Source: Candidatus Hermodarchaeota archaeon (GTDB lineage: Archaea > Asgardarchaeota > Hermodarchaeia > Hermodarchaeales > Hermodarchaeaceae). Taken from it: a stretch of 64,000 bases of DNA. Location: positions 67,886 through 131,885 of the forward strand of contig JAEOTB010000037.1 of NCBI GenBank assembly GCA_016840065.1. Reading direction: 5' to 3'. Within the stretch, counting starts at the first letter, position 1; each line of letters starts with the position of its first letter. The notes beneath the pieces are model-generated. The model had not been told where the DNA came from. It saw nothing but the letters and a program-made list of their open reading frames with translations, and ran no database searches. Shown here piece by piece: positions 6,483-47,090 of this stretch. Both the position numbers and the translations under genes were made by a program.

Positions 6483-7838
6483 CTACTTCTTTACTGTTAT
6501 CTTCTGTACTACTCCAACAGCCACTGTGCGACCACTATCACGAATCGCAAACCGACCCAGCTGCTTCATATCGGCAAACCGCTCTAACACAATTGGCTGC
6601 ACTGGACTGAACTTGACGATAGCTGATTCACCTTGTTTGATGAAGTCTGGCTTCTCCTCCACCGTCTCGCCAGTACGAGGATCAATCTTGCTGATAAGCT
6701 CAGTGAAAGTCGTTGCCATCTGGAGTGTGTGAGCGTGCATAACTGGTGTGTACCCAGCGGCTATGGCTCGTGGGTGATGGATTACGATTATTTGTCCAAC
6801 GAAATCTGTGATAACCTTGGGTGGGTCGCTGACATGACCCATGACATCACCACGTTGAACCTCGCCTTTTCCAATGCCACGAACATTGAAACCGATGTTG
6901 TCGCCCGGCTCAGCCTTCTGCATTTTCTCATGGTGCATCTCGATTGACTTGACTTCGCCCGTATGCCCAGAGGGCATGAAGATTACTTTATCGCCAACTT
7001 TCAAAACACCAGTTTCAACTCTACCAACGGGAACAGAGCCTACGCCAGTAATGGTGTAGCAGTCCTGGATTGGTACTCGCAATGGTGCTTTGAGTGGTTT
7101 CTCTGGCTGTACGAACTTGTCAAGAGCCTGGAGCAAGGTGGGACCTTTATACCAGGGCATGTTCTCACTAGCCTTATCCAGCCCATCTCCTGTCCAACCG
7201 CTGGTTGGGATGAAATCGACTTTGCTTGGATCGAATTGAGCACCCTGGAGCACTGAAGTGACTTCTGCCTTGATTTCCTCGTAGCGTTCTTGGCTCCAAG
7301 GAGGCGTAGAGTCGTCCATCTTGTTCACAGCAACAGCGACCTGCTCGATACCAAGGGTTCGGGCAAGGAATGCGTGCTCACGGGTCTGCCCGCCCGCACT
7401 GATTCCAGCTTCAAACTCACCCTTACGTGATGAAACGACAAGAATCGCCGCATCAGCCTGGCTGGCACCCGTAATCATGTGCAAGAATTAAGGAGCGTAC
7501 CCCTCAATTATTCTTGATGAAGTCCGCGTGCCCAGGAGCGTCAATCAGCGTGAAGTAGTGTTTTTGTGTCTCGAATTTTCGAAAAGCTAGATCGATTGTT
7601 AGCCCACGTTCTCGCTCTTCCTTCAAGCGATCCATTACTTACCCCTTCATATCGTGTGATATGAAGTGTAGGCGAACTTGAACGAGGCGTCTTTCGTTTC
7701 TGATGCTAGCTTTTCTAATTTGAGCATTTCTTGTTTCGTTAGCGCACCCGTGACATATACGAGGTGGCCCATTAGCGTTGATTTACCATGATCAACGTGA
7801 CCAATGATGATCAAGTTGATGTGTGGTTTAGTAGCCAT
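6483..7838 (-). CDS. tuf: Translation elongation factor EF-1alpha, interrupted by two BHB introns; join(7838..7668, 7638..7511, 7479..6483), 431 aa
   Basis: GHVDHGKST in exon 1. Exon 2 reads [42 protein letters not shown]. Exon 3 reads [10 protein letters not shown]...NKMD. Exon lengths 171+128+997=1296 nt form one intact frame. Confidence 0.95.
7480..7510 (-). other. BHB intron 2 in tuf mRNA (31 nt)
   Basis: UCAU-CAAG-AA|U-AAUUGAGGGG(UACG)CUCCUUAAUU-CUUG-CA|C-AUGA, a full hBHBh' motif. Removal gives DFIKN MITG. Confidence 0.92.
7639..7667 (-). other. BHB intron 1 in tuf mRNA (29 nt)
   Basis: GCCU-AC|A-CUUCAUAUC(ACAC)GAUAUGAAG-GGGU-AA|G. Removal gives FKFAY|VMDRLKEE. Confidence 0.9.
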
Positions 7839-8003: not shown

Positions 8004-11000
8004 TCAAAGTGGTAGGAGGGCTTGGAAGGGGGATAACATAGGTGCTACTGTGGCTACTAGCACGCCAAGTATTTGTCCAAGAAGATTACGGACGATTTGA
8101 CCCACTACTTGATTGAGAAGAACCTTAACCACTCCAGCAAGAGTGAGATTACAAACCATCTTCCCCACAGGGAGTAGAACGCTATACCAGAGCCAAACCA
8201 CACTATCACGAACAATTGGTGATAACACACTAAGTATCCATGTAGCTATGAGATGAGCAAAATCTGCTAGCGTAAAGAAAGGAAAGCCCAACGCTTGCAG
8301 ACTTGCCCCGAAGCCGGTGATAACTAAGCTTAGTAACCCCGTCGCCGATAAACTCGTAGCAGTAATACCCAAACTAAACACTGACCCGCTGATGTATTGG
8401 AGAACTATAGCGAAAATACTGAATACAACGCCAATAAGCCAACCATATTGTGTAAGTGTAGCGAGGAAGGTGTTGATAGTGAATGTTAAGAATATGAAAA
8501 GCGCTGTACCGATTGCGCTGAGAATCAATGGGAGCAAGCTGCTGAATAAACTAGTAAGACCACTCCCAGTTGAAGCCGAAGAAGTGGAGGCTAAACCCCC
8601 ACCAAGAGCCCGACTAGTTAAACTAACAACGGCAAAATTCTGTATCAAAACGAGAAGCGGCGCTAATGAAGTGTATCGAGCATCCATTGTATTAATGCCA
8701 AGACTTGTGAGGATACTCTGAATGGCAGTAGTGATAGTGATTGCTACTAGAAGGGCCTTCCAGCGGCTGGGATTAAGTAACTGCCGAACACGCTGTTTGA
8801 TTGTGAAAAACAGGTTCTTTGCATAATCCTTCAGCCTGTCTGTTAGCTGGTCGCGAGCGCGACCTGTAAGCATCTGTATGTAACTAGTTTCAAGAATAAT
8901 TTGGGAAGGAAACTTTTGGCGCACAAACCGATCGAAAACATAGAATCTGCTGTAATATCCCCCTTTGTAGGTGTTTCCCCCACGAGAGCCGTATTGCCAG
9001 CTATTCCCTAATGTTCTATCTAGATTCTCGAAGATTGCGGGCCATCCACCAGGGTTTCCCCATCGACCTGTTTGATCTTTACCATTGTAGATGAAGGAAA
9101 GTTTTCCCCATTCCTTGTATGTAGACCATATTTTCTCATCAATGGATAGACTTCTCACGGTTTTTCCTCTATCAATTTCCTGATCAGATTGTAGAGGAAC
9201 AGGGCAGATACGACCCACCCCAAGTACTGCACAGAAATAGATGAGGGTGTTCAAATCATCCCGAGTTACATCATCTAATCCATAACGCCATGTTCGATCA
9301 CGAGCAGAATTCTTTCTTGCCGTCCAAAACGACCACGTTAATCTATAGAGTTTATTCTCTCCAAATCCACGAGTTGTACGACGGAGCCCGTAATACTGAT
9401 TCAATAGTCCTACATGTCGGTATTTGACATGAGTGGGCTCCAGTTGCATCGTCACCCCAACTGGTCCAGCAGGCGTGTTAACCAATTGAGTACCAGTTAA
9501 AGCCAGAGTTGTCAGGCCCATTAGCGGGTCAATATGCCCTTCACGACACTCGAATTCTACGAGCCGAAGCCCACCTAACTGTGGTTCGTCTGGTTTGGGT
9601 GGCATTTCATCATTCTGTTGAGGTTTCAGAATGAACAAGTTCCATTTAGTTTTCATTACCACATCAAGACGTTGTTTCATCGAAAGTAGTACGCCTTGAA
9701 TGAATGGATTTAGTTCTTGAAGTGTCGGAGGGGCTGCGATGAATAATTGATTCTGATATTTCCTCTTTACCTCTTTGACGGCTTCGGTCTGGAAAAGAGG
9801 ACCTTCGTCACAAAGAATACCTCTAGGAACCCCAGCAATGCAGCTGTAAAATTCAGCAAAGAGTAGGTATTGTCCTCTAATAGTTTTAGTCGAGAAGCCC
9901 TCAATATCTCCTGGATAATGTGTGTGTATCTGGGCATTGTTTGGATTTAGTAAATCCCAAAGACACCAGAAACTCTTTCTCTTTGCTGAAACTCCAGTAA
10001 ATCCAGTTCGAGTGGGAATAAGAAATGTGGGTAGTTCAATCCACCTATTACTCCATGTAGGCGCTTGGCTTGGTTTGTATCGAGCAGTAATCGTGGGATT
10101 AAGTGGAAGAATGAGAATAGCACCTTGCTGATTCTTGATATGGTTGATAAGGCTAGTATCTTGCTGGGCTAGTTCTGCAGTATCAATGTTTGAACGGTCT
10201 GGTTTGAGTATGAGAGCATTCTTGATATGGGCGACAACTGCATCTGAGTGGACTGGAAGACCATGATTCCTTCGGGCTTCTTGGAAATCAGCGTTGTCAC
10301 TTATTCGATATATCACTTGGAAAGTGGAGTAGGTTTTCCCTTTGTGATGTGTGTAGGTAATGAAGTTGTCCCGGACAATTCCAAGGTTTTCTTCTTCAAA
10401 ATAAACACGTTTTGTACCTTGCCCTGGAGGCGCTAACGCCATACGCTCTTCGTAAACCGCTGATGCTTGCTGCCAGTAAAGCCCCTTCGCATACCTTCCA
10501 TCTCCTATGCCCGCCCAATGCCGAAAGATAAGAACTTCTGTTGTTAACTTAAGTGAGCCAATCACAGGAATAGGTGTGCTATTCAGAATCTCCTTTTCCA
10601 ACCCCCTAACCTGCGAGTCAATCATCACACCCTCCTCAACAAGTGTAGCCATTGCTGGTAAAATTTCTTGGATTTGGGGAATAAGGATACCAATCTCCTT
10701 AACCGTAGTCCAGTCTAATCCCTTCATCTTGTCCAGTGTTTTCCTGATAGTTCCTTGAATTTGTTCTTTCATTATGCCTATACGGCCACACTTCAACGCT
10801 TGATCCAAGATATTGACATACGGGAAAGTCTCTAGTGTTGTTGGGTAAATGGCTTCAGCACCATAGTCGGGAGTTGTGAAAGTACCTGAAGCTCCAGGTG
10901 GGGGAGGTGAGGTCTCATCCTCACCAAAAAGGAAAGCTTGCAGAAAAAACCCAATTACTGGCAACTCTAACAGCTTGCTTATCAGAAATTCAAGAGGTAC

Positions 11001-14000
11001 GAATATGATGTTAGTTAGTGCATTTCGAACCGCTGTAATGATGCCGAATATTGCCTGTAATAGCACCATTCCTAATGTCATAAGTATCGTCTTCCCAATT
11101 TCTATTAAAACGCTCAAACACTGTGTAATGAAATCCCACGCAGGTCCTAGAATTGCCTTGGGGTCGAAAAAGCTCAATTGCCCGTCTGTCACCTTCTTGA
11201 TAGCATACTGGGTAGCTAACTCGCCTACAACCTCTGGTAGACTCAAGGGTTTCCCTGAATGCCTGTTCAGAGCCTCCGCTACCCCCTTAATCACATACAT
11301 AGGCTCTTCAATATAACCAGCCTCAAAAAGCAGAATAGCCTGCACACTTCTGTCATATACGACTTGCCAGCCGAATCTGTCTTCTAACCCTGCATTCAGT
11401 TTCAACAGTCGCAGTAACCCGGTCAGCTTGTAAGATGCTTCTTCCAGATTTCGTATCTTAGCATAGTGAATTAGTTCATCAAAGAGACGCTGAGCCTCCA
11501 GCCCCACCTGATTCCACGTCTCTGAACCCGCATCCTTGTACATCGACTCCGCAGTAGATAAGAGGGAATCGCGAGCTTCTTGGATGCGTTCCTGCAAAGC
11601 AACCTCGTCCCTCAGCCTCGCAAGCTTTGCCAAGGTTTCCGCTACTTTTACCTCCACTTGTTTCTGATGGATTACGGCCAGTATCGTGTTCTCTAGGTAC
11701 TTGTCTAGAGACTCATAGCCTAAATCCCATCCCCGCACCACCACCTCTCCATAAAAGAGGAAGGTGGGCACAAACCAGCCCATACTCAAAGACCCCTCAA
11801 AGACCTGAGTGGGAGCAAGATAGGGCTTGACACGGGACCAGTCCGCCTCCCCTACCTGATACTCTGGTGTGGTTGCAAAGGGACTCGCCTCGACTGATAG
11901 CAGCTGCGTTGACTGGAGGGCAGACTGCAAGAACTCGTCTTCCACCAGTGGATTTGAGTCAAAACACCATCGCTGGAGGTCACCCTCACCCAAATAGTAC
12001 AGATCATCGCCTAACTGTTGTTGAAGGGCTTGAAGCCGTAACATCTCTGCCAGCGATAGACGAGCCGCATCTACGGTGTGTTTTGTCGGGTCAACAGCGG
12101 TACGATAGCCCACTAAGAGGAAGCTACCTAATACTGTAGTGAGGGGTTCTACTTGGAAGGTTGATAGGTTCAAGGCTTGGAAGAATTGTAGGAGGTCTTG
12201 GGCATAGGCATCCAAGTTGGTTTGAGCGTGGTGGTGTAATTGCTCATGGAAGGTCAGAAAAGAAATATCTCCAGGGAGGCTAGCTCCAAGCCCTGCGAAC
12301 ATAAAAAGCAGAAGTTTGGGATCAACAAACGCAAGACCAGCTAGGCAGATAACAATCCAGGGTCCATTCATTAGGATGTAACTACCAATCAGTTGCTTAT
12401 CGTCAAGAGAAGCAAAGACATTGAGAATTGTGGTCTTGGCCTCGGCTTCTCCTGCCTGTAGGAGTGAAGTTCCCACAAACTCAGCCCGTAGGGTCACCAC
12501 ACCCACAAGACTTTGGGACACCAGCCAATCTAGTGTAGCCTCTCCTTCGGCGTTGGTGTAGGCTTCGCCAAGAAGTGATGTGCCGTTTATCCCCTCAAGG
12601 AAGAAGCGGATAAGCTGATGTGCCACTGGCTGTCCAGTGCTAGTGGTTACGATTGCAGTTATTTGGGTTGTCTGTTGAGTTGTAAGATCCGCTGGAACCG
12701 ACAATGTAAGTTGGGTTGTCGCCACCACACAGAACTCTATTATCTCACTGCTTGCACCAGCCGGACTCTTTGCGATGACAGTCGCCGTGTAGCTGTGCAT
12801 CCCCTGTAAGGGACCGATGATACCCGATGTCATCCACACACTACCATAACAGGAGAGAGCAAAGCTTTCTGGTACACTGTTGCCATCGGTGTCAAGCTGG
12901 ACGGTGAGTGTGAGGAGGTCGTCAGGGTATGTGGCGTTCAGAGTGACCTGTACACTCAAGGTGTCTGTATCACAAATTGTCGCATTACCATAGAGGGTAG
13001 ATAGCTTTGCAGTCAAGATGGTGGGCGGATGGTTGCAGAGGGTGACACTCTGCTCTGCTTGGCAAGTTCGTAATGCCAAGTCATATCCAATGAGGGTGAG
13101 GATGTGGTCACCATCTGGTAACGTGCTAGTATCGAGGGTAAGGGTGTGGCTACCTGATGAGTGGAGGCGGAATAGCACTACCTCGCCATCTAATAGTAAG
13201 ATTGCTTCTCTCATGTTCGCATCGGCGAGAAAGAGGGTGATTTCTACAATGCCTGTGAGGATGGTTCCTGCGGTGGGGGTGTCAATGCGAACCACTGGGT
13301 TCTCCAAGTCCACAGTGAAGGCTTCGGTGTATTCTGCGACATTACCCGCAATGTCAGTGGCTTTGATGAGAACTGTGTGTGGAGCCGCTGTAACTGCTAT
13401 TGTAAAGGTGGTCTCGTTGGTGTTCTCTGCAACACCAGAGAATATGCCATCGATGAAGAGTTCGATTGTCTCGCAATGCCTGTCTGTTACAAAGACCACC
13501 ACGTCAAGCGTGGTGTTTTCGGTGAACCCTGCCTCCGTTACTGGCAGAAAGACCTCCAAGATGGGTGCTGTGCTATCTATGAGAAAAGTGACACTCCGAG
13601 CAAGAGCATTTCCTGCGCGGTCCATTGCCTGAACCAGTATTGTGTGGGAACCATCAGTGAGATTGGTTAAGGTATATTGGCGGTAACTACCATCGAGTTC
13701 AACAGCTAGGGTTCCATCGAGGTAAACAGTAAAGGTTGCAATCCCTGCGGTGGTGTCGCTGGCACTCCACTGAATACGCGGATTTACACTAGAAGTGTGA
13801 GAGTCTTCCAAGGGGGCTGTGATGGCTAGAGTCGGGGAAGTTGCGTCTGTGGTAAAGATGTTTGAGGTGCTTTGGTGATTGCCAGCCAAATCAATGGCTT
13901 CAACGGTCAAAGTGTGTATGCTCTCGGTCAAGTTGGAAAGCAGGAACATCGTGTCTACGGTGTTCGCCAATAAAACGCCGTCAAGGTAGACCTGATAATA

Positions 14001-16394
14001 GGCAATTCCCGTATTGTCAGTTCCCTCCCAAATAGCTGACAAACCAGTAGCGCTATAGTACTCACCCTCCAATGGTGATGCTATTACGACATCGGGTAAT
14101 GTGTTATCTACAACCACAATAAGGCTGTGAGTGGCTATCCAACCTACACCATCGGAGGCTATAGCAGCCAGGGTGTGGTTACCATCACACCACTCTTGAG
14201 TATCCCAAGGAAACAGAAAGGGAGGACAGGTCGTTGTGTTGTAGAGGAGAACACCATCAACGGACAGGACAACCCACAACACACCAGAGGGATTGATACC
14301 AAAATCATCTGCTGATACCTCCACGACAACGGTTTGGCTGAGAATTGTTCCCTCAGAGAGAAAATCCACCGTTACAATGGGTGGTGTGGCGTCAACATGA
14401 AGCGTTCGTAACAAGCTAGCCCAGTTCCCCACCCTATCTACTGCTGTGGTATTCACGGTGTATGTTCCTTCTATTGTGGGTACTGTCCATTCTTGGGTTT
14501 GTGAGCCTGTATCAGTTGTTGAGATCCTGTGATGGTAGTTATTGGGACCTGTGATGGTCAGGTTGGAAGCCGCCAACCCTGCTGGGGGATTGCCCTCATC
14601 GGTCTGCTGCCACACAAGACTACACAGTTTTCCCGCAGCAACATGAGCAGCATTGGCTGGGGCAGAGAAGGAAAGGAGGGGTGTCGTGCAATCAATCAGA
14701 TAGATACCGTGAATTGTTGTTGCACCCACTTCACCAGTTTGGGGGTTTACCGCAAATGCCATCACATCGTACCAGCCCTCCAATACACCAGCAACAACCT
14801 CTGTCAAGTAGCCATCACCACTCCCATTTACAGGAAGATAGAGATTACCACTTGGTTGTTCATAGACTTGGGTGCCATCACAGATAATTCGATATTTTGC
14901 AAAGGTGGGACCTGCTGCATAGGAGACAGTCACATTGAACTGATCGCCCACAGCCGCATAGGTTTGAGTCGAATCTGCTGTGACACTCCACCCCCCATGT
15001 GTTGCCAACCTGTTAACCGAGTTTGCGGAAAAAGTCCAAACACCTTCTGCAGGATTATTCACGAATATACTATACGACGCTTCACTGAGCGAAACAGAGC
15101 CTGATGGGTTGTTGGGGCTAGATTGGTAATTACTCCAGCCACAGGGGAGGCTGAGCGAGAAGCTCCCCGGTTGCCACTGGGCACCCGTAACTTGACTACT
15201 AAAGGAAATGCCCCAATCAGCAAATGAAGCACCACTGATAACGGAAAAGGTGGTGTCGGCGGTACGCTCCCAGCTAGCCTCCATTGATTCGTGGTGATTG
15301 AACACCGTCACAGGCCAATCCGAGGCACCGCTGTCTGAGCGAGTGAAATAATATGAAGTACCAGTACCACTGGCGCAAGTATCTAAAACACTCACATGAC
15401 CCTTTCCCCAGTCCACTCCATTTGACACCGCATACTGCTTGGTGGGATCCGCTTCACTTCTAAGAGCTAGGTCCAGGTCACTGGATCGAAGCTTGTGGAG
15501 AGCCCACAGGTTAGCATAGTCAAACCGCACCGCACTCCAATGACTACTGAACAGGGTTGAAGCAGTGGTCACCCAGACATTTAGACGAAGCTCAATGGTT
15601 GCCGCATGATCCGGTAGGGCGCTGTCAAAATGCAGGTTAACCTCATCGGTTACCCAGGTGTCCAGCGGCGAAGCCAAATCCATATCATAGGGGGTGGCTG
15701 CTAGTACGCTATCGACGTAGATTTGGGCGCATATTCGCACCCAGTTTTTGTAGCGAAAGCCAAGGGTTAGTTGGGTGCGGTGGAGGGGGAAGAGTCCGCG
15801 TGTGTCGCTGAACCAGCCCGGCGGCACCAAGAAGCTTTGGCTGAAGTAGCCCTGACAGGTACCCTGGTAGATAATCCAGCCGATGAGGAGGGGTGATTCG
15901 ATTTCTCCGTAGGATATTCCTTCTTCACTGGCAAAGGAGATTTGGGCGATTCCATCGGTGTGGTTGGTCCAAGGAGTGCCGTGGTCGAAGTGGTAGTCGC
16001 TGAGCCATTCGCTGCGCTGCCCCCATAAATCGCCCACATAGGAGGTGAAGAAATAGTCGAAGTAGGTTCCCTCCGTGGGCGGATCCACTTGGGGACCTAT
16101 CACTTCCAGCGACGAGGCTTCGGTCATGTAGCGGTTTGTGGTGGGTGTTGTACAACCTGCTGTAATAGTGCCAGAAAGGGGTGCAGAAGACCCTGAGAAA
16201 ATATCCACTCCACTTGTTGGAGGTATCAGTTGTTGTGGGTTTGGATTGGCGATTGGTAGAGTTTGCTGATGGTGAGAAGCTGACTCCCTTAGAGGAGGAG
16301 AGTCTGTAGTGAGGTGGGGGGATTGGGGGAAGGCGCTGATGCTGCCTAGAAAGAGAAGGAGGAGCACGCAGGCGATGGAACCATTCACCTTCAT
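8004..16394 (-). CDS. Giant (2796 aa) exported/membrane protein with tandem bacterial Ig-like (Big) repeats and a multi-TM C-terminus
   Basis: N-terminal signal peptide. Repeats of the form D-x-T-x-P...G-x-HT...A-x-D-x-A-G-N. Internal hydrophobic helices and a long hydrophobic C-terminus. Confidence 0.8.
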   Translation of the reverse strand: MKVNGSIACVLLLLFLGSISAFPQSPHLTTDSPPLRESASHHQQTLPIANPNPQQLIPPTSGVDIFSGSSAPLSGTITAGCTTPTTNRYMTEASSLEVIGPQVDPPTEGTYFDYFFTSYVGDLWGQRSEWLSDYHFDHGTPWTNHTDGIAQISFASEEGISYGEIESPLLIGWIIYQGTCQGYFSQSFLVPPGWFSDTRGLFPLHRTQLTLGFRYKNWVRICAQIYVDSVLAATPYDMDLASPLDTWVTDEVNLHFDSALPDHAATIELRLNVWVTTASTLFSSHWSAVRFDYANLWALHKLRSSDLDLALRSEADPTKQYAVSNGVDWGKGHVSVLDTCASGTGTSYYFTRSDSGASDWPVTVFNHHESMEASWERTADTTFSVISGASFADWGISFSSQVTGAQWQPGSFSLSLPCGWSNYQSSPNNPSGSVSLSEASYSIFVNNPAEGVWTFSANSVNRLATHGGWSVTADSTQTYAAVGDQFNVTVSYAAGPTFAKYRIICDGTQVYEQPSGNLYLPVNGSGDGYLTEVVAGVLEGWYDVMAFAVNPQTGEVGATTIHGIYLIDCTTPLLSFSAPANAAHVAAGKLCSLVWQQTDEGNPPAGLAASNLTITGPNNYHHRISTTDTGSQTQEWTVPTIEGTYTVNTTAVDRVGNWASLLRTLHVDATPPIVTVDFLSEGTILSQTVVVEVSADDFGINPSGVLWVVLSVDGVLLYNTTTCPPFLFPWDTQEWCDGNHTLAAIASDGVGWIATHSLIVVVDNTLPDVVIASPLEGEYYSATGLSAIWEGTDNTGIAYYQVYLDGVLLANTVDTMFLLSNLTESIHTLTVEAIDLAGNHQSTSNIFTTDATSPTLAITAPLEDSHTSSVNPRIQWSASDTTAGIATFTVYLDGTLAVELDGSYRQYTLTNLTDGSHTILVQAMDRAGNALARSVTFLIDSTAPILEVFLPVTEAGFTENTTLDVVVFVTDRHCETIELFIDGIFSGVAENTNETTFTIAVTAAPHTVLIKATDIAGNVAEYTEAFTVDLENPVVRIDTPTAGTILTGIVEITLFLADANMREAILLLDGEVVLFRLHSSGSHTLTLDTSTLPDGDHILTLIGYDLALRTCQAEQSVTLCNHPPTILTAKLSTLYGNATICDTDTLSVQVTLNATYPDDLLTLTVQLDTDGNSVPESFALSCYGSVWMTSGIIGPLQGMHSYTATVIAKSPAGASSEIIEFCVVATTQLTLSVPADLTTQQTTQITAIVTTSTGQPVAHQLIRFFLEGINGTSLLGEAYTNAEGEATLDWLVSQSLVGVVTLRAEFVGTSLLQAGEAEAKTTILNVFASLDDKQLIGSYILMNGPWIVICLAGLAFVDPKLLLFMFAGLGASLPGDISFLTFHEQLHHHAQTNLDAYAQDLLQFFQALNLSTFQVEPLTTVLGSFLLVGYRTAVDPTKHTVDAARLSLAEMLRLQALQQQLGDDLYYLGEGDLQRWCFDSNPLVEDEFLQSALQSTQLLSVEASPFATTPEYQVGEADWSRVKPYLAPTQVFEGSLSMGWFVPTFLFYGEVVVRGWDLGYESLDKYLENTILAVIHQKQVEVKVAETLAKLARLRDEVALQERIQEARDSLLSTAESMYKDAGSETWNQVGLEAQRLFDELIHYAKIRNLEEASYKLTGLLRLLKLNAGLEDRFGWQVVYDRSVQAILLFEAGYIEEPMYVIKGVAEALNRHSGKPLSLPEVVGELATQYAIKKVTDGQLSFFDPKAILGPAWDFITQCLSVLIEIGKTILMTLGMVLLQAIFGIITAVRNALTNIIFVPLEFLISKLLELPVIGFFLQAFLFGEDETSPPPPGASGTFTTPDYGAEAIYPTTLETFPYVNILDQALKCGRIGIMKEQIQGTIRKTLDKMKGLDWTTVKEIGILIPQIQEILPAMATLVEEGVMIDSQVRGLEKEILNSTPIPVIGSLKLTTEVLIFRHWAGIGDGRYAKGLYWQQASAVYEERMALAPPGQGTKRVYFEEENLGIVRDNFITYTHHKGKTYSTFQVIYRISDNADFQEARRNHGLPVHSDAVVAHIKNALILKPDRSNIDTAELAQQDTSLINHIKNQQGAILILPLNPTITARYKPSQAPTWSNRWIELPTFLIPTRTGFTGVSAKRKSFWCLWDLLNPNNAQIHTHYPGDIEGFSTKTIRGQYLLFAEFYSCIAGVPRGILCDEGPLFQTEAVKEVKRKYQNQLFIAAPPTLQELNPFIQGVLLSMKQRLDVVMKTKWNLFILKPQQNDEMPPKPDEPQLGGLRLVEFECREGHIDPLMGLTTLALTGTQLVNTPAGPVGVTMQLEPTHVKYRHVGLLNQYYGLRRTTRGFGENKLYRLTWSFWTARKNSARDRTWRYGLDDVTRDDLNTLIYFCAVLGVGRICPVPLQSDQEIDRGKTVRSLSIDEKIWSTYKEWGKLSFIYNGKDQTGRWGNPGGWPAIFENLDRTLGNSWQYGSRGGNTYKGGYYSRFYVFDRFVRQKFPSQIILETSYIQMLTGRARDQLTDRLKDYAKNLFFTIKQRVRQLLNPSRWKALLVAITITTAIQSILTSLGINTMDARYTSLAPLLVLIQNFAVVSLTSRALGGGLASTSSASTGSGLTSLFSSLLPLILSAIGTALFIFLTFTINTFLATLTQYGWLIGVVFSIFAIVLQYISGSVFSLGITATSLSATGLLSLVITGFGASLQALGFPFFTLADFAHLIATWILSVLSPIVRDSVVWLWYSVLLPVGKMVCNLTLAGVVKVLLNQVVGQIVRNLLGQILGVLVATVAPMLSPFQALLPL

Positions 16395-31239: not shown

Positions 31240-31347
31240 TGGCGCCCGCACCGGGATTCGAACCCGGGTCCTAGGAGTGACAGTCCCAGATGATAGACCT
31301 GATTCTGCATTCTGGCAGTTATTGCCAAAATCCTACACTATACGGGC
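31240..31347 (-). tRNA. tRNA-Asp(GUC) with 30-nt D-loop intron (31303-31332, position 15/16)
   Basis: GCCCGUA/UGCGGGC acceptor, CU-GUC-AC loop, UUCGAAU T-loop, encoded CCA. Intron hairpin AUUUUGGCA/UGCCAGAAU. Confidence 0.93.
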
Positions 31348-31439
31348 TGCAATAGTTTGCTTTGGGTGTTTGGATAAAAAGCTTTCTCTGCTTAGTGTGC
31401 TACGCACTTGGATTAGTGGTGCTGGTCTAAGAAAAGTGG

Positions 31440-31599
31440 TGGTCCCGCCTCCCGGATTTGAACCAGGTTATGGGTCCTTGAAATGCTCCAAGGACAAACC
31501 ATCTGGTTACTGCCTTGACTGACACCACGTCATAACCCGGGGGGCTCAGGGTGCGAGTAATCTACAGCCAGACGCTCTACCGGACTAAGCTAAGGCGGG
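31440..31599 (-). tRNA. tRNA-Tyr(GUA) with two introns: 54 nt at 37/38 (31508-31561) and 29 nt at 48/49 (31468-31496)
   Basis: CCCGCCU/AGGCGGG acceptor. BHB helices CUGU:GCAG and AUGG:CCAU. Spliced length 77 nt. Confidence 0.92.
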
Positions 31600-32223: not shown

Positions 32224-32829
32224 TTGGTAGATGAGCATCCACTGGAAGAAGTTTCTCTAGATGAAGATAAGGAAGAACCGCGCCCTCAGCTCCCAGAGGA
32301 ACCTATAACAGCGAAGCTGTCCAGAGGACGTGTCGTAGTTAAGGGGGAGATGGCCCGTGTTCTATACGACGCTGGGCACTTTGGCACTTTGAAAAGTGAA
32401 TTAGAACTCGTCTTAGAGGCTGAGGAAGCCCTCTTACTTATACGACGAAAGCGAATTCAGGTCTTTGACAGAAAAGGAACTGAACTAGATTTCTCGGTGT
32501 TGCTTCAGATATTATCAGAACGCCACCCTAGATTATGGACGCAGTATCTTGTATACAGTGACCTTAGGAGCAGAGGTTATGTTGTCCGAACAGGCTATGG
32601 AAAAGGACTCTGGTTTCGCGTTTATCCACGGGGCGCCAAACTAAACGAGGCAACAGCGAAATATTTTGTGTGCGCCATATCAGAGGGTTCACCACTTAAA
32701 GTAGCAGAACTTGAGAAGCTTAGCAGTCTAGCGTTAAGGAACCGGAAAAAGCTGATGCTAGCTGTCTTGGATAGACAAGGTGAAACAACCTACTATCTAG
32801 TTTCACACGCCGACATCACGGCAGACTAG
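32224..32829 (+). CDS. endA: tRNA-intron (BHB) splicing endonuclease subunit, probably the structural subunit
   Basis: EEALLL, YLVYSDLRSRGYVVRTG, FRVY, RKKLMLAVLD. No catalytic His after FRVY. Confidence 0.85.
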   Translation: MVDEHPLEEVSLDEDKEEPRPQLPEEPITAKLSRGRVVVKGEMARVLYDAGHFGTLKSELELVLEAEEALLLIRRKRIQVFDRKGTELDFSVLLQILSERHPRLWTQYLVYSDLRSRGYVVRTGYGKGLWFRVYPRGAKLNEATAKYFVCAISEGSPLKVAELEKLSSLALRNRKKLMLAVLDRQGETTYYLVSHADITAD

Positions 32830-34547: not shown

Positions 34548-34653
34548 GGGCTGGTGGTCTAGATTCCCAGAAGGATAGCCTTCTGGACTAGATTGGTATG
34601 ATTCGCGGTTTGGGTCCGTGAGATCCCGGGTTCAAATCCCGGCCGGCCCACCA
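34548..34653 (+). tRNA. tRNA-Pro(UGG) with 29-nt D-loop intron (34565-34593)
   Basis: GGGCUGG/CCGGCCC acceptor, UU-UGG-GU loop. BHB CUAG:CUAG and hairpin CCAGAAGG/CCUUCUGG. Confidence 0.92.
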
Positions 34654-39666: not shown

Positions 39667-40969
39667 ATGAACTTGGGTTCAAGTACGCCTAGTAGTGCTA
39701 CTACAAAGTATGAAATCCGATGTAAAATAGAAATTAGCGGAGTTGTTGAGACTCCAGATGTCGTTGGAGCGCTCTTTGGTCAAACAGAGGGCCTACACTT
39801 CATGATACGCGTTTCATGAAGGGGTAATCGGTGAAGATTTAGATCTGAGAGAACTGCAGCAGTCTGGACGAATAGGTCGAATAAAGGTTGAACTACACTC
39901 AGAGGGAGGAAAATCCCGCGGAATAATAGTAATCCCTTGCAGCCTTGACCGTACTGAAACAGCCATTCTTGCAGCGGCATTGGAGACAGTTGACAGAGTT
40001 GGACCGTGTTCAGCGAAAATCACTCTGGAGAAGGTTGAAGATGTCCGTGACTCTAAACGCAAACAGATTATTGATCGAGCTGTGGCTTTACTGCGTGTAT
40101 GGGAGGGTGAAACCTCTCCAGGGGCACAGGAGATAACCGATAAAGTTACACGTGAAACGAAGACAGCAGAAATCACTCGATTTAATGGGCTTCCTGCGGG
40201 TCCTTCTGTTCAAGAATCAGATACAATAATCGTCGTAGAAGGGAGGGCTGATGTCCTCGCATTGCTCCGAGCAGGAATAAAGAACGTTGTTGCAGTTGAG
40301 GGTACCAGTATTCCTCCTTCCATCATAAAACTAGCAAAAACAAAAACGATTATTGCCTTCCTTGACGGCGATAGGGGTGGCGACTTGATTCTTAAAGAAT
40401 TGTCTCAGGTTACAGATATCAAGTTTGTAGCGCGAGCGCCAGCGGGACGTGAGGTTGAAGAACTTACAACAAAGGAGATAACCAAAGCTCTTAGAAATAA
40501 AGTGCCTGCATCCCAGGTTGTTGGACGGATAAAACGAGGGGTAAGCGAGTCGGCAACAACAAGAGCCTCTTCAACTCCAAAACGCAGAACTCGCCGAACA
40601 ACACAGAAAACAACTGCACCGCGGCGAACTGCAACCCGTTCTAAGACCACGACCAGAAGTGTTACACGACCAAAAAGTGGAAGCATCCCTAAACCGATTC
40701 GAGAATTAGCTGAGAAAATACAAGAGACAATGACTGCAATGATACTCGATAAGGATAAGAAGGTCTTGAAAGAAGTTCATGTCGCAGAACTGGCTTCAAT
40801 GCTGCAAGAAATAGAAAAAGCGAAAACAATCATTCTCGATGGTGTAATCACTCAGCGACTGGTAGACATCGCTGGTGAACGTGGAGTGACCCTAATCATA
40901 GGCGCGAGAACCGGTAAAATTGTAAAGAGACCCGTGAAAATCAAGATACACACATTCAACGATTTATGA
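39667..40969 (+). CDS. dnaG: Archaeal DnaG (primase / exosome-associated), interrupted by one BHB intron; join(39667..39796, 39828..40969), 423 aa
   Basis: Exon 1 reads TTKYEI...[19 protein letters not shown]. Exon 2 reads [19 protein letters not shown]...VVEGRAD...DGDRGG. Exon lengths 130+1142=1272 nt are in frame. Start could be TTG 39673. Confidence 0.94.
39797..39827 (+). other. BHB intron in dnaG mRNA (31 nt)
   Basis: GCCU-AC|A-CUUCAUGA(UACGCGUU)UCAUGAAG-GGGU-AA|U. Removal restores GQTEGLLG. Confidence 0.9.
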
Positions 40970-46298: not shown

Positions 46299-46406
46299 GG
46301 GCCGATGGTCTAGCTATCCAATTGGGAAACTCCCTTTGGACTAGAAGGTTATGACACCGCGCTTACACCGCGGTGGTCGGGAGTTCGAATCTCCCTCGGC
46401 CCACCA
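46299..46406 (+). tRNA. tRNA-Val(UAC) with 31-nt D-loop intron (46316-46346, 17/18)
   Basis: GGGCCGA/UCGGCCC acceptor, CU-UAC-AC loop. BHB CUAG:CUAG with bulges CU|A and AA|G. Confidence 0.93.
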
Positions 46407-46744: not shown

Positions 46745-47090
46745 GACAGTGAGCCTAGGCGGGGGGCTAGAAGCCCCGCAGCACGACTACGGGCTGGCCA
46801 AGGTTCCCCTCTACCGCAAATACTCTATAGCGGGCTGAATGCCGGCGTGAGGCTTCCTAACCCGGTGTACGACTCGCAGTTCGTTGGCAGTGAAGATCCG
46901 CCTCGGAGGATCGCAGGTGGTGGTAGGCTTTTCGTAGGAAGGGCTGAATCACCTCTAGCGTGTGAACCCAGCGAGGCCCTGGCGGGAGCAGCGTAAGCGC
47001 GCACTGTTGGTGCTTCCGAGATTCCCGGGTCGGAGACCTGTCTGTGGGTACGGCGGCGGTGAAGGTTGTCAATTGTCGGGGTTCACTGTC
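46745..47090 (+). ncRNA. ffs: SRP (7S) RNA containing a 31-nt BHB intron in the Alu domain
   Basis: Terminal helix GACAGUGAGCC/GGUUCACUGUC, Alu start CUAGGCGGGGGG, helix 8 AGG-CCC(UGGC)GGG-AGCAG. Length 346 nt, or 315 nt after intron removal. Confidence 0.9.
46771..46801 (+). other. BHB intron in SRP RNA (31 nt)
   Basis: GGCU-AG|A-AGCCC..(CACGA)..GGGCU-GGCC-AA|G. Removal restores the helix-3 loop UAGGG, complementary to helix-4 loop CUCUA. Confidence 0.8.

Follow-up and report, generated by a model that had tools for sequence, protein, structure and literature searches.

How could EF-1alpha be made from a tuf gene whose reading frame is broken twice? The question is raised by tuf in the 64,000-nucleotide stretch of Candidatus Hermodarchaeota DNA analysed here (the window), where two short inserts interrupt the gene (Table 1). 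We argue that the second insert, intron 2, is very probably a BHB (tRNA-type) intron within the coding sequence, which EndA would cut and RtcB would join to give the full factor. This insert introduces an in-frame TGA as well as a frameshift. Removal of both inserts by the bulge rule gives a protein of 431 aa with a single terminal stop: excision of 7667-7639 (29 nt) regains a protein stretch that includes FAYVMD, and excision of 7510-7480 (31 nt) regains DFIKNMITG. At intron 1, no cut other than that of the bulge rule regains FAYVMD/YVMD; at intron 2, the protein alone permits four 31-nt cuts (starts 7511-7508), and the BHB rule places the cut at 7510, just one of the four Asn-restoring cuts being compatible with the 4-bp central helix. 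The initial annotation had reported a 31-nt intron at these coordinates that splits the Asn codon of DFIKNMITG as AA/C just after the G3 motif, and a 128-nt internal exon between the two introns. The coordinates, the split of Asn100, and the exon length proved exact, and Asn100 lies ten residues past the start of DAPG (90-93).

Table 1. Features of the tuf locus, its intron 2 fold and related inserts; slashes mark junctions, and coordinates without a contig prefix are those of the window.
Feature	Coordinates	Strand	Description
EF-1alpha (tuf) gene	7838 to 6483	minus	upstream of rpS10
tuf exon 1	7668..7838	(-)	171 nt, 57 codons, P-loop GHVDHGKS
tuf intron 1	7639..7667	(-)	29 nt, phase 0 (Tyr57/Val58)
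tuf internal exon 2	7511..7638	(-)	128 nt, switch I to DAPG
5' exonic strands of intron 2 fold	7513..7520	(-)	h (UCAU, 7520-7517) and H (CAAG, 7516-7513)
tuf intron 2	7480..7510	(-)	31 nt, phase 2 inside Asn100
Inner hairpin h'	7486..7509	(-)	10 bp with 2 G-U, UACG loop
Intronic 3' strand of central helix H	7482..7485	(-)	CUUG
Exonic 3' strand of outer helix h	7475..7478	(-)	AUGA
tuf exon 3	6483..7479	(-)	997 nt
EndA structural (beta-type) subunit	32224..32829	(+)	201 aa
dnaG intron	39797..39827	(+)	31 nt, inside GQTEGL/LGED
moxR	C10:39546-39571	(+)	BHB-type insert
acs paralogue	C105:254-284	(-)	BHB-type insert
acs paralogue	C113:13547-13603	(-)	BHB-type insert
Conserved 534-aa gene	C85:7196-7226	(-)	BHB-type insert
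G004 155-aa gene	L165:11117-11145	(-)	BHB-type frame-breaking insert
G004 CoA-transferase subunit gene	L207:15791-15825	(+)	BHB-type frame-breaking insert
cbf5 intron, codon 56, genus 2	L260-L271, L277, L278		at NLD/KPPGP

The spliced protein aligns without gaps to EF-1alpha of two congeners (91-92% identity) and of 11 relatives from a second genus of the family, genus 2 (79-81%), and each exon matches its own portion of Pfam GTP_EFTU. Beyond the two inserts, the 1296 nt of tuf hold no further lesion. Unspliced, half-spliced, or exon-skipped messages are computed to encode products of 63, 101, 63, or 65 aa. In the public annotation and protein collection (P0005), tuf is represented only by a truncated product of 331 aa, a record which implies that gene callers miss exons 1 and 2. 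Directly upstream of tuf lies an ORF of 2796 aa (8004-16394, minus strand) whose N-terminus is signal-like, whose domains are repeated and beta-rich, and whose C-terminus is hydrophobic.

At intron 2, the outer helix (UCAU/AUGA) and the central helix (CAAG/CUUG, probability 0.98) each consist of four Watson-Crick pairs, and the bulges (AA/U and CA/C) are of 3 nt each and lie on opposite strands. When the exons were held fixed and the 31 nt shuffled, H = 4 together with a stem of at least 10 arose in 1e-5 of 200,000 shuffles; the z-score of the fold is -3.46 (0/200 shuffles). A genome-wide scan for H with 4/4 Watson-Crick pairs, h' of at least 10, and h of at least 4 returned only 4 sites, and of these, intron 2 alone leaves long open frames to either side once removed; a reference-free scan for the BHB motif gave 38,093 sites and was swamped by chance. 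The initial annotation had described a complete hBHBh' motif. All helices and bulges can form as described, including the 10-bp inner stem capped by UACG (with two of its pairs G-U); however, tandem AAU-AAU at the 5' junction allows bulge 1 to slide by 3 nt, and folding predictions favour this slid, non-BHB register as the optimum (-14.3 vs. -13.3 kcal/mol, a gap of 1.0 kcal/mol). Bulge 2 is present in the optimal fold, and h and H have probabilities of 0.82-0.99 and are stable in every context tried, while the first three pairs of h' have probabilities of 0.08, 0.40, and 0.65. The extra-stable cUNCGg loop has a C-G closing pair, unlike the UACG loop of intron 2, which is closed by G-C. Intron 2 is confined to one species and hence shows no covariation.

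At 31 nt, beginning with UA and ending with CA and with no Rfam match at its place, the insert shows neither the ribozyme core nor the GU...AG ends by which group I, group II, or spliceosomal introns are recognised. It has the features of a BHB intron: a 4-bp central helix, two 3-nt bulges and h/h' helices that can form, a host restored by a cut after the second bulge base, and a genome encoding both EndA and an RNA ligase. Two EndA paralogues are present. The one in the window is without the catalytic Tyr/His/Lys and the CSL residues and fits a beta subunit; the catalytic (alpha) paralogue, on contig C85, matches A. pernix EndA alpha (3p1z) over its length (E 6e-45), retains the catalytic Tyr, His, and Lys, and carries K-P-K at the position of K44-P45-R46 in the A. 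pernix CSL, a loop linked to broad substrate range (PMC12397907). RtcB is intact and lies on the same contig, upstream of the window (E 2.9e-170).

The tuf pre-mRNA would thus fold into hBHBh' at intron 2; a two-subunit EndA, (alpha-beta)2, would cut past the second base of each bulge; and RtcB would join the exons, rebuilding the Asn codon. With intron 1 also removed, a 431-aa EF-1alpha would arise from three exons, and an EndA of broad specificity may clear such inserts from tRNAs, SRP RNA, and mRNAs alike. The EndA-type reading advanced in the initial annotation thereby gains support from frame restoration, the sole tuf, DNA contigs, the enzymes, and sister introns, splicing itself being predicted from sequence.

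Similar inserts are found elsewhere in this genome and family. Spliced alignment with an aligner blind to RNA structure was applied to filtered ORFs (1428 and 1387 genes), with proteins of relatives (2.17 Mb of G004 and 0.13 Mb of G003) as queries against this genome, and the reverse for G004. Inserts were counted if frame-breaking, shorter than 60 nt, and flanked by identity of at least two-thirds, a cut-off chosen after the output was seen; on this basis there are nine in the two genomes, located here in tuf (two), moxR, acs, and the 534-aa gene, and in G004 in cbf5, the CoA-transferase gene, the 155-aa gene, and one 22-nt event. Eight of the nine have H = 4 and h' of at least 4 no more than 2 nt from the junction called by the aligner; the same BHB geometry arises at random coding sites at a rate of 0.19-0.43%. 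The moxR and acs introns are common to the congener G003, and the second acs paralogue has a related intron. The orthologues of the G004 155-aa and CoA-transferase genes are intact in this genome. The second exon of the G004 155-aa gene has no Pfam match and is roadblock-like by eye only. A comparison of introns common to this genome and G004 gave 9 matches vs. 3-6 in controls, and only dnaG stood out.

The dnaG intron is present in 18/18 family genomes in which dnaG was found, at 28-31 nt and with paired stem changes, and a metagenome scan of dnaG added one further intron-bearing copy (L304). An intron of 40-43 nt in cbf5 is likewise present wherever cbf5 was found in genus 2 (14/14 genomes), and genus 1 lacks it; cbf5 of this genome is uninterrupted. 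In ten aligned copies, its central helix is 100% paired and 4 pairs are changed on both sides (2/500 shuffles), though the covariation score and the percentage paired are not clearly above shuffles (68 and 69 of 500). The site differs from the catalytic Asp codon site of the crenarchaeal cbf5 intron. Two carriers of this mini-intron (G012 and G005; L277, L278) also have an in-frame, intein-like insertion of ~500 residues in cbf5, starting from the Cys after GTYIRKL. Among noncoding genes of the window, BHB-type inserts of 28-31 nt are present in tRNA genes and in the SRP RNA gene (RF01857, 46747-47088; a 31-nt insert at 46771-46801 (+)), and BHB-type inserts of 28-44 nt occur in tRNA-like loci overlooked by ARAGORN without intron mode (31304-31496 (-), 34556-34599 (+), and 46316-46346 (+)). 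The retention of frame-breaking inserts in single-copy dnaG and cbf5 is hard to explain without splicing, which raises the odds for the tuf intron.

Among alternatives, the one that survives best, though we regard it as quite improbable, is that this tuf is a dead copy broken by stray hairpins, and that the 16% of the genome missing from the assembly harbours an intact tuf. A tblastn search of the 2.59-Mb assembly found one tuf, the other matches being 24-25% paralogues; with the MAG at 83.9% completeness and 5% contamination, a second intact tuf could escape this single-copy count. The incompleteness of the MAG, the species-specificity of the inserts, and the two tuf-like matches in some Asgard genomes (G036, G041) all lend this alternative some room. 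Against it stand two inserts that are both excisable exactly by the bulge rule and 1296 nt without other lesion. The gene is also in its usual place adjoining rpS10, no family genome yields a second tuf match, four runs contain no intron-free contig at 95-100% identity (contigs showing presence only), and like inserts are conserved in dnaG and cbf5.

The codon record bears on the same point. Compared with the two congeners, exon 1 has 22-24 synonymous and 2-3 non-synonymous codon differences, against 20-22 and 0, respectively, in exon 2, for 42-44 synonymous vs. 2-3 non-synonymous codon changes over both; these two exons are the best-conserved part of tuf. Lineage-specific amino-acid changes number 16 here, and 16 and 19 in the intron-free congeners. 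This signal of purifying selection could partly predate very recent insertions.

Expression without splicing is a still more doubtful proposition, whether by ribosomal bypass (a T4 gene 60-type hop) or by production of exon 3 alone from the TTG at 7484. The stop codon two codons into the insert, within a stable hairpin, and the 333-aa ORF starting at 7484 are what such a proposition has to offer. A bypassing ribosome would, however, have to land past an in-frame TAA on TTC, TTG, or CAC, none of which matches Lys/Asn; the sole pair is Phe-Phe, which would turn DFIKNMITG into DFLHMITG, and the site does not qualify for bypass. The 333-aa ORF is without the P-loop and DAPG, even though exons 1 and 2 are the best conserved, and neither variant explains the BHB-type inserts in tRNA and SRP RNA genes.

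At a similarly low level of credence, intron 2 may be spliced by another route or register, or be partly retained as a switch tying EF-1alpha output to EndA/RtcB activity. The slid register is, as noted, the predicted optimum, and a regulatory role has been proposed for the cbf5 intron (PMC2738675). Yet all four Asn-restoring cuts remove 31 nt and one fits the 4-bp central helix, and recent, patchy gains in unrelated genes are a better match for neutral accumulation than for a switch. Intron 2 is most likely a tolerated insertion rather than an adaptive regulator.

Both inserts are covered, gap-free and with a single mismatch, by Logan contigs from two marine-sediment DNA runs, X1 and X2; the runs are from the same study, and one may be the source of the MAG. 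A joint in both runs that skips the 31 nt was considered as a spliced form and rejected, given that these are DNA contigs and that 36 differences in 336 letters identify an intron-free relative that co-occurs in X1 and X2. An assembly or library artefact such as a fold-back chimera, suggested by partial reverse complementarity between the 3' arm and the 5' flank and by the shared study of the two runs, is the least credible alternative and practically negligible, as the insert-bearing contigs were assembled separately and gap-free in X1 (depth 16) and X2 (depth 9), the arms are imperfect (G-U pairs, a 3-nt offset), and intron 1 matches a dnaG intron of another species.

If intron 2 is indeed a BHB intron removed by EndA and RtcB, when and how did it arrive? 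Neither tuf intron is present in the 13 family tuf genes that cover the sites, two from congeners and 11 from other family members; GCA_016840135.1 and some Logan contigs stop short of tuf. The insert pattern at the intron 2 site was found in none of 300 other Asgard genomes, the search being for the exact pattern, which not every tuf would match. The absence from relatives indicates recent gains of both introns, and intron 2 is, judging from these genomes, a gain on this species' own branch.

For intron 1, whose motif is relaxed, of the HBh' type, and lacks a contiguous outer helix, a source can be proposed. Two substitutions and one gap separate it from the G004 dnaG intron (0/3000 shuffles), and the six exon bases ahead of the two introns are identical; the pattern common to intron 1 and the dnaG intron occurs twice per genome in this genome only. 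Intron 1 is a near-copy of that of dnaG, whose family is its probable source. Because the whole family has the dnaG intron and only this genome has the copy in tuf, movement from dnaG to tuf is the most likely direction. The tuf intron 1 is nearer to genus-2 dnaG introns (L168) than to the dnaG intron of its own genome.

The initial annotation had considered intron 2 unrelated to intron 1 and independently gained, and the first claim holds: the global alignment score of the two is -10, with 85-88% of shuffles scoring as well. The second is supported, in that intron 1 has an identifiable source, the dnaG intron, to which intron 2 bears no resemblance. No donor for intron 2 was found in this genome with up to 8 mismatches, by short blastn in this genome and about 2.2 Mb of G004, or by end pattern in 19 family genomes. 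The match of intron 1 to the dnaG intron and to its 6-nt upstream exon flank suggests a route whereby an excised intron would be reverse-ligated into a look-alike site and then fixed in DNA; reverse ligation of this kind is likely, on the example of intron 1, as the route of arrival. At the intron 2 site, the exon sequence already supplies half of the BHB motif.

Taken more broadly, these observations probably, though with less assurance than for intron 2 itself, reflect an Asgard family with routine pre-mRNA splicing by the tRNA machinery, ongoing BHB gains, movement from dnaG to tuf, and a three-exon essential mRNA. If true, an essential gene in the lineage nearest to eukaryotes would have a multi-exon archaeal message, spliced with EndA/RtcB chemistry, which eukaryotes have kept for tRNA and, on the ligase side, for XBP1 splicing. 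The arrival of BHB introns would become testable through a very recent gain whose sister species lack the intron, and through an intron whose donor is visible. Truncation of such genes by gene callers affects both Asgard annotation and marker-gene phylogenomics.

The closest known system is the crenarchaeal cbf5 pre-mRNA intron of Desulfurococcales and Sulfolobales (Watanabe 2002; Yoshinari 2006; Yokobori 2009, PMC2738675). Like it, intron 2 is a short BHB-type intron in coding sequence (16-44 nt in cbf5) that splits a conserved codon, would be cut between the second and third bulge residues, and occurs in a host with a two-subunit EndA, as do cbf5 introns, whose hosts have the hetero-tetrameric enzyme (PMC2738675). 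It falls outside the cbf5 intron family, as it lies in tuf and not in the catalytic Asp codon of cbf5. The tuf case further differs in its Asgard host, in having two introns and an internal exon in one mRNA, and in the interruption of several other mRNAs of the same genome; intron 2 has a strict hBHBh' motif and appears to be a recent species-level gain, whereas the cbf5 intron has a relaxed motif and reflects one old gain. The cbf5 case is backed by cDNA and cleavage data, while splicing of the tuf intron is predicted from sequence.

In a 2020 study, the cbf5 intron is given as the sole BHB intron known earlier from archaeal mRNA, and the 5' UTR intron of HVO_1309 in Haloferax volcanii is added as an mRNA substrate of the tRNA splicing endonuclease, these two being the only mRNA substrates listed (PMC7714728). 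The HVO_1309 intron lies in an untranslated leader, leaves the reading frame unbroken, and is served by a homodimeric EndA (PMC7714728); the tuf intron, in contrast, is within coding sequence and in a genome with a two-subunit EndA. Coding-gene BHB introns in Asgard archaea had no report in the literature searched, mostly without subscription papers, and the arrangement inferred here, with two recently gained introns in one essential and universal Asgard gene, appears to be new. Two studies of non-canonical introns of Asgard archaea are confined to tRNA genes, mRNA and cbf5 being unmentioned in the preprint (PMC11291895; bioRxiv 10.64898/2026.10.13.758758). The tuf introns resemble these in motif, in size, in the many recent and independent gains, and in the two-subunit EndA encoded by most of the genomes. 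They differ in being hosted by an mRNA and, for intron 1, in having a donor family that can be seen in another mRNA; the tRNA-intron studies identified no general route by which introns arrive.
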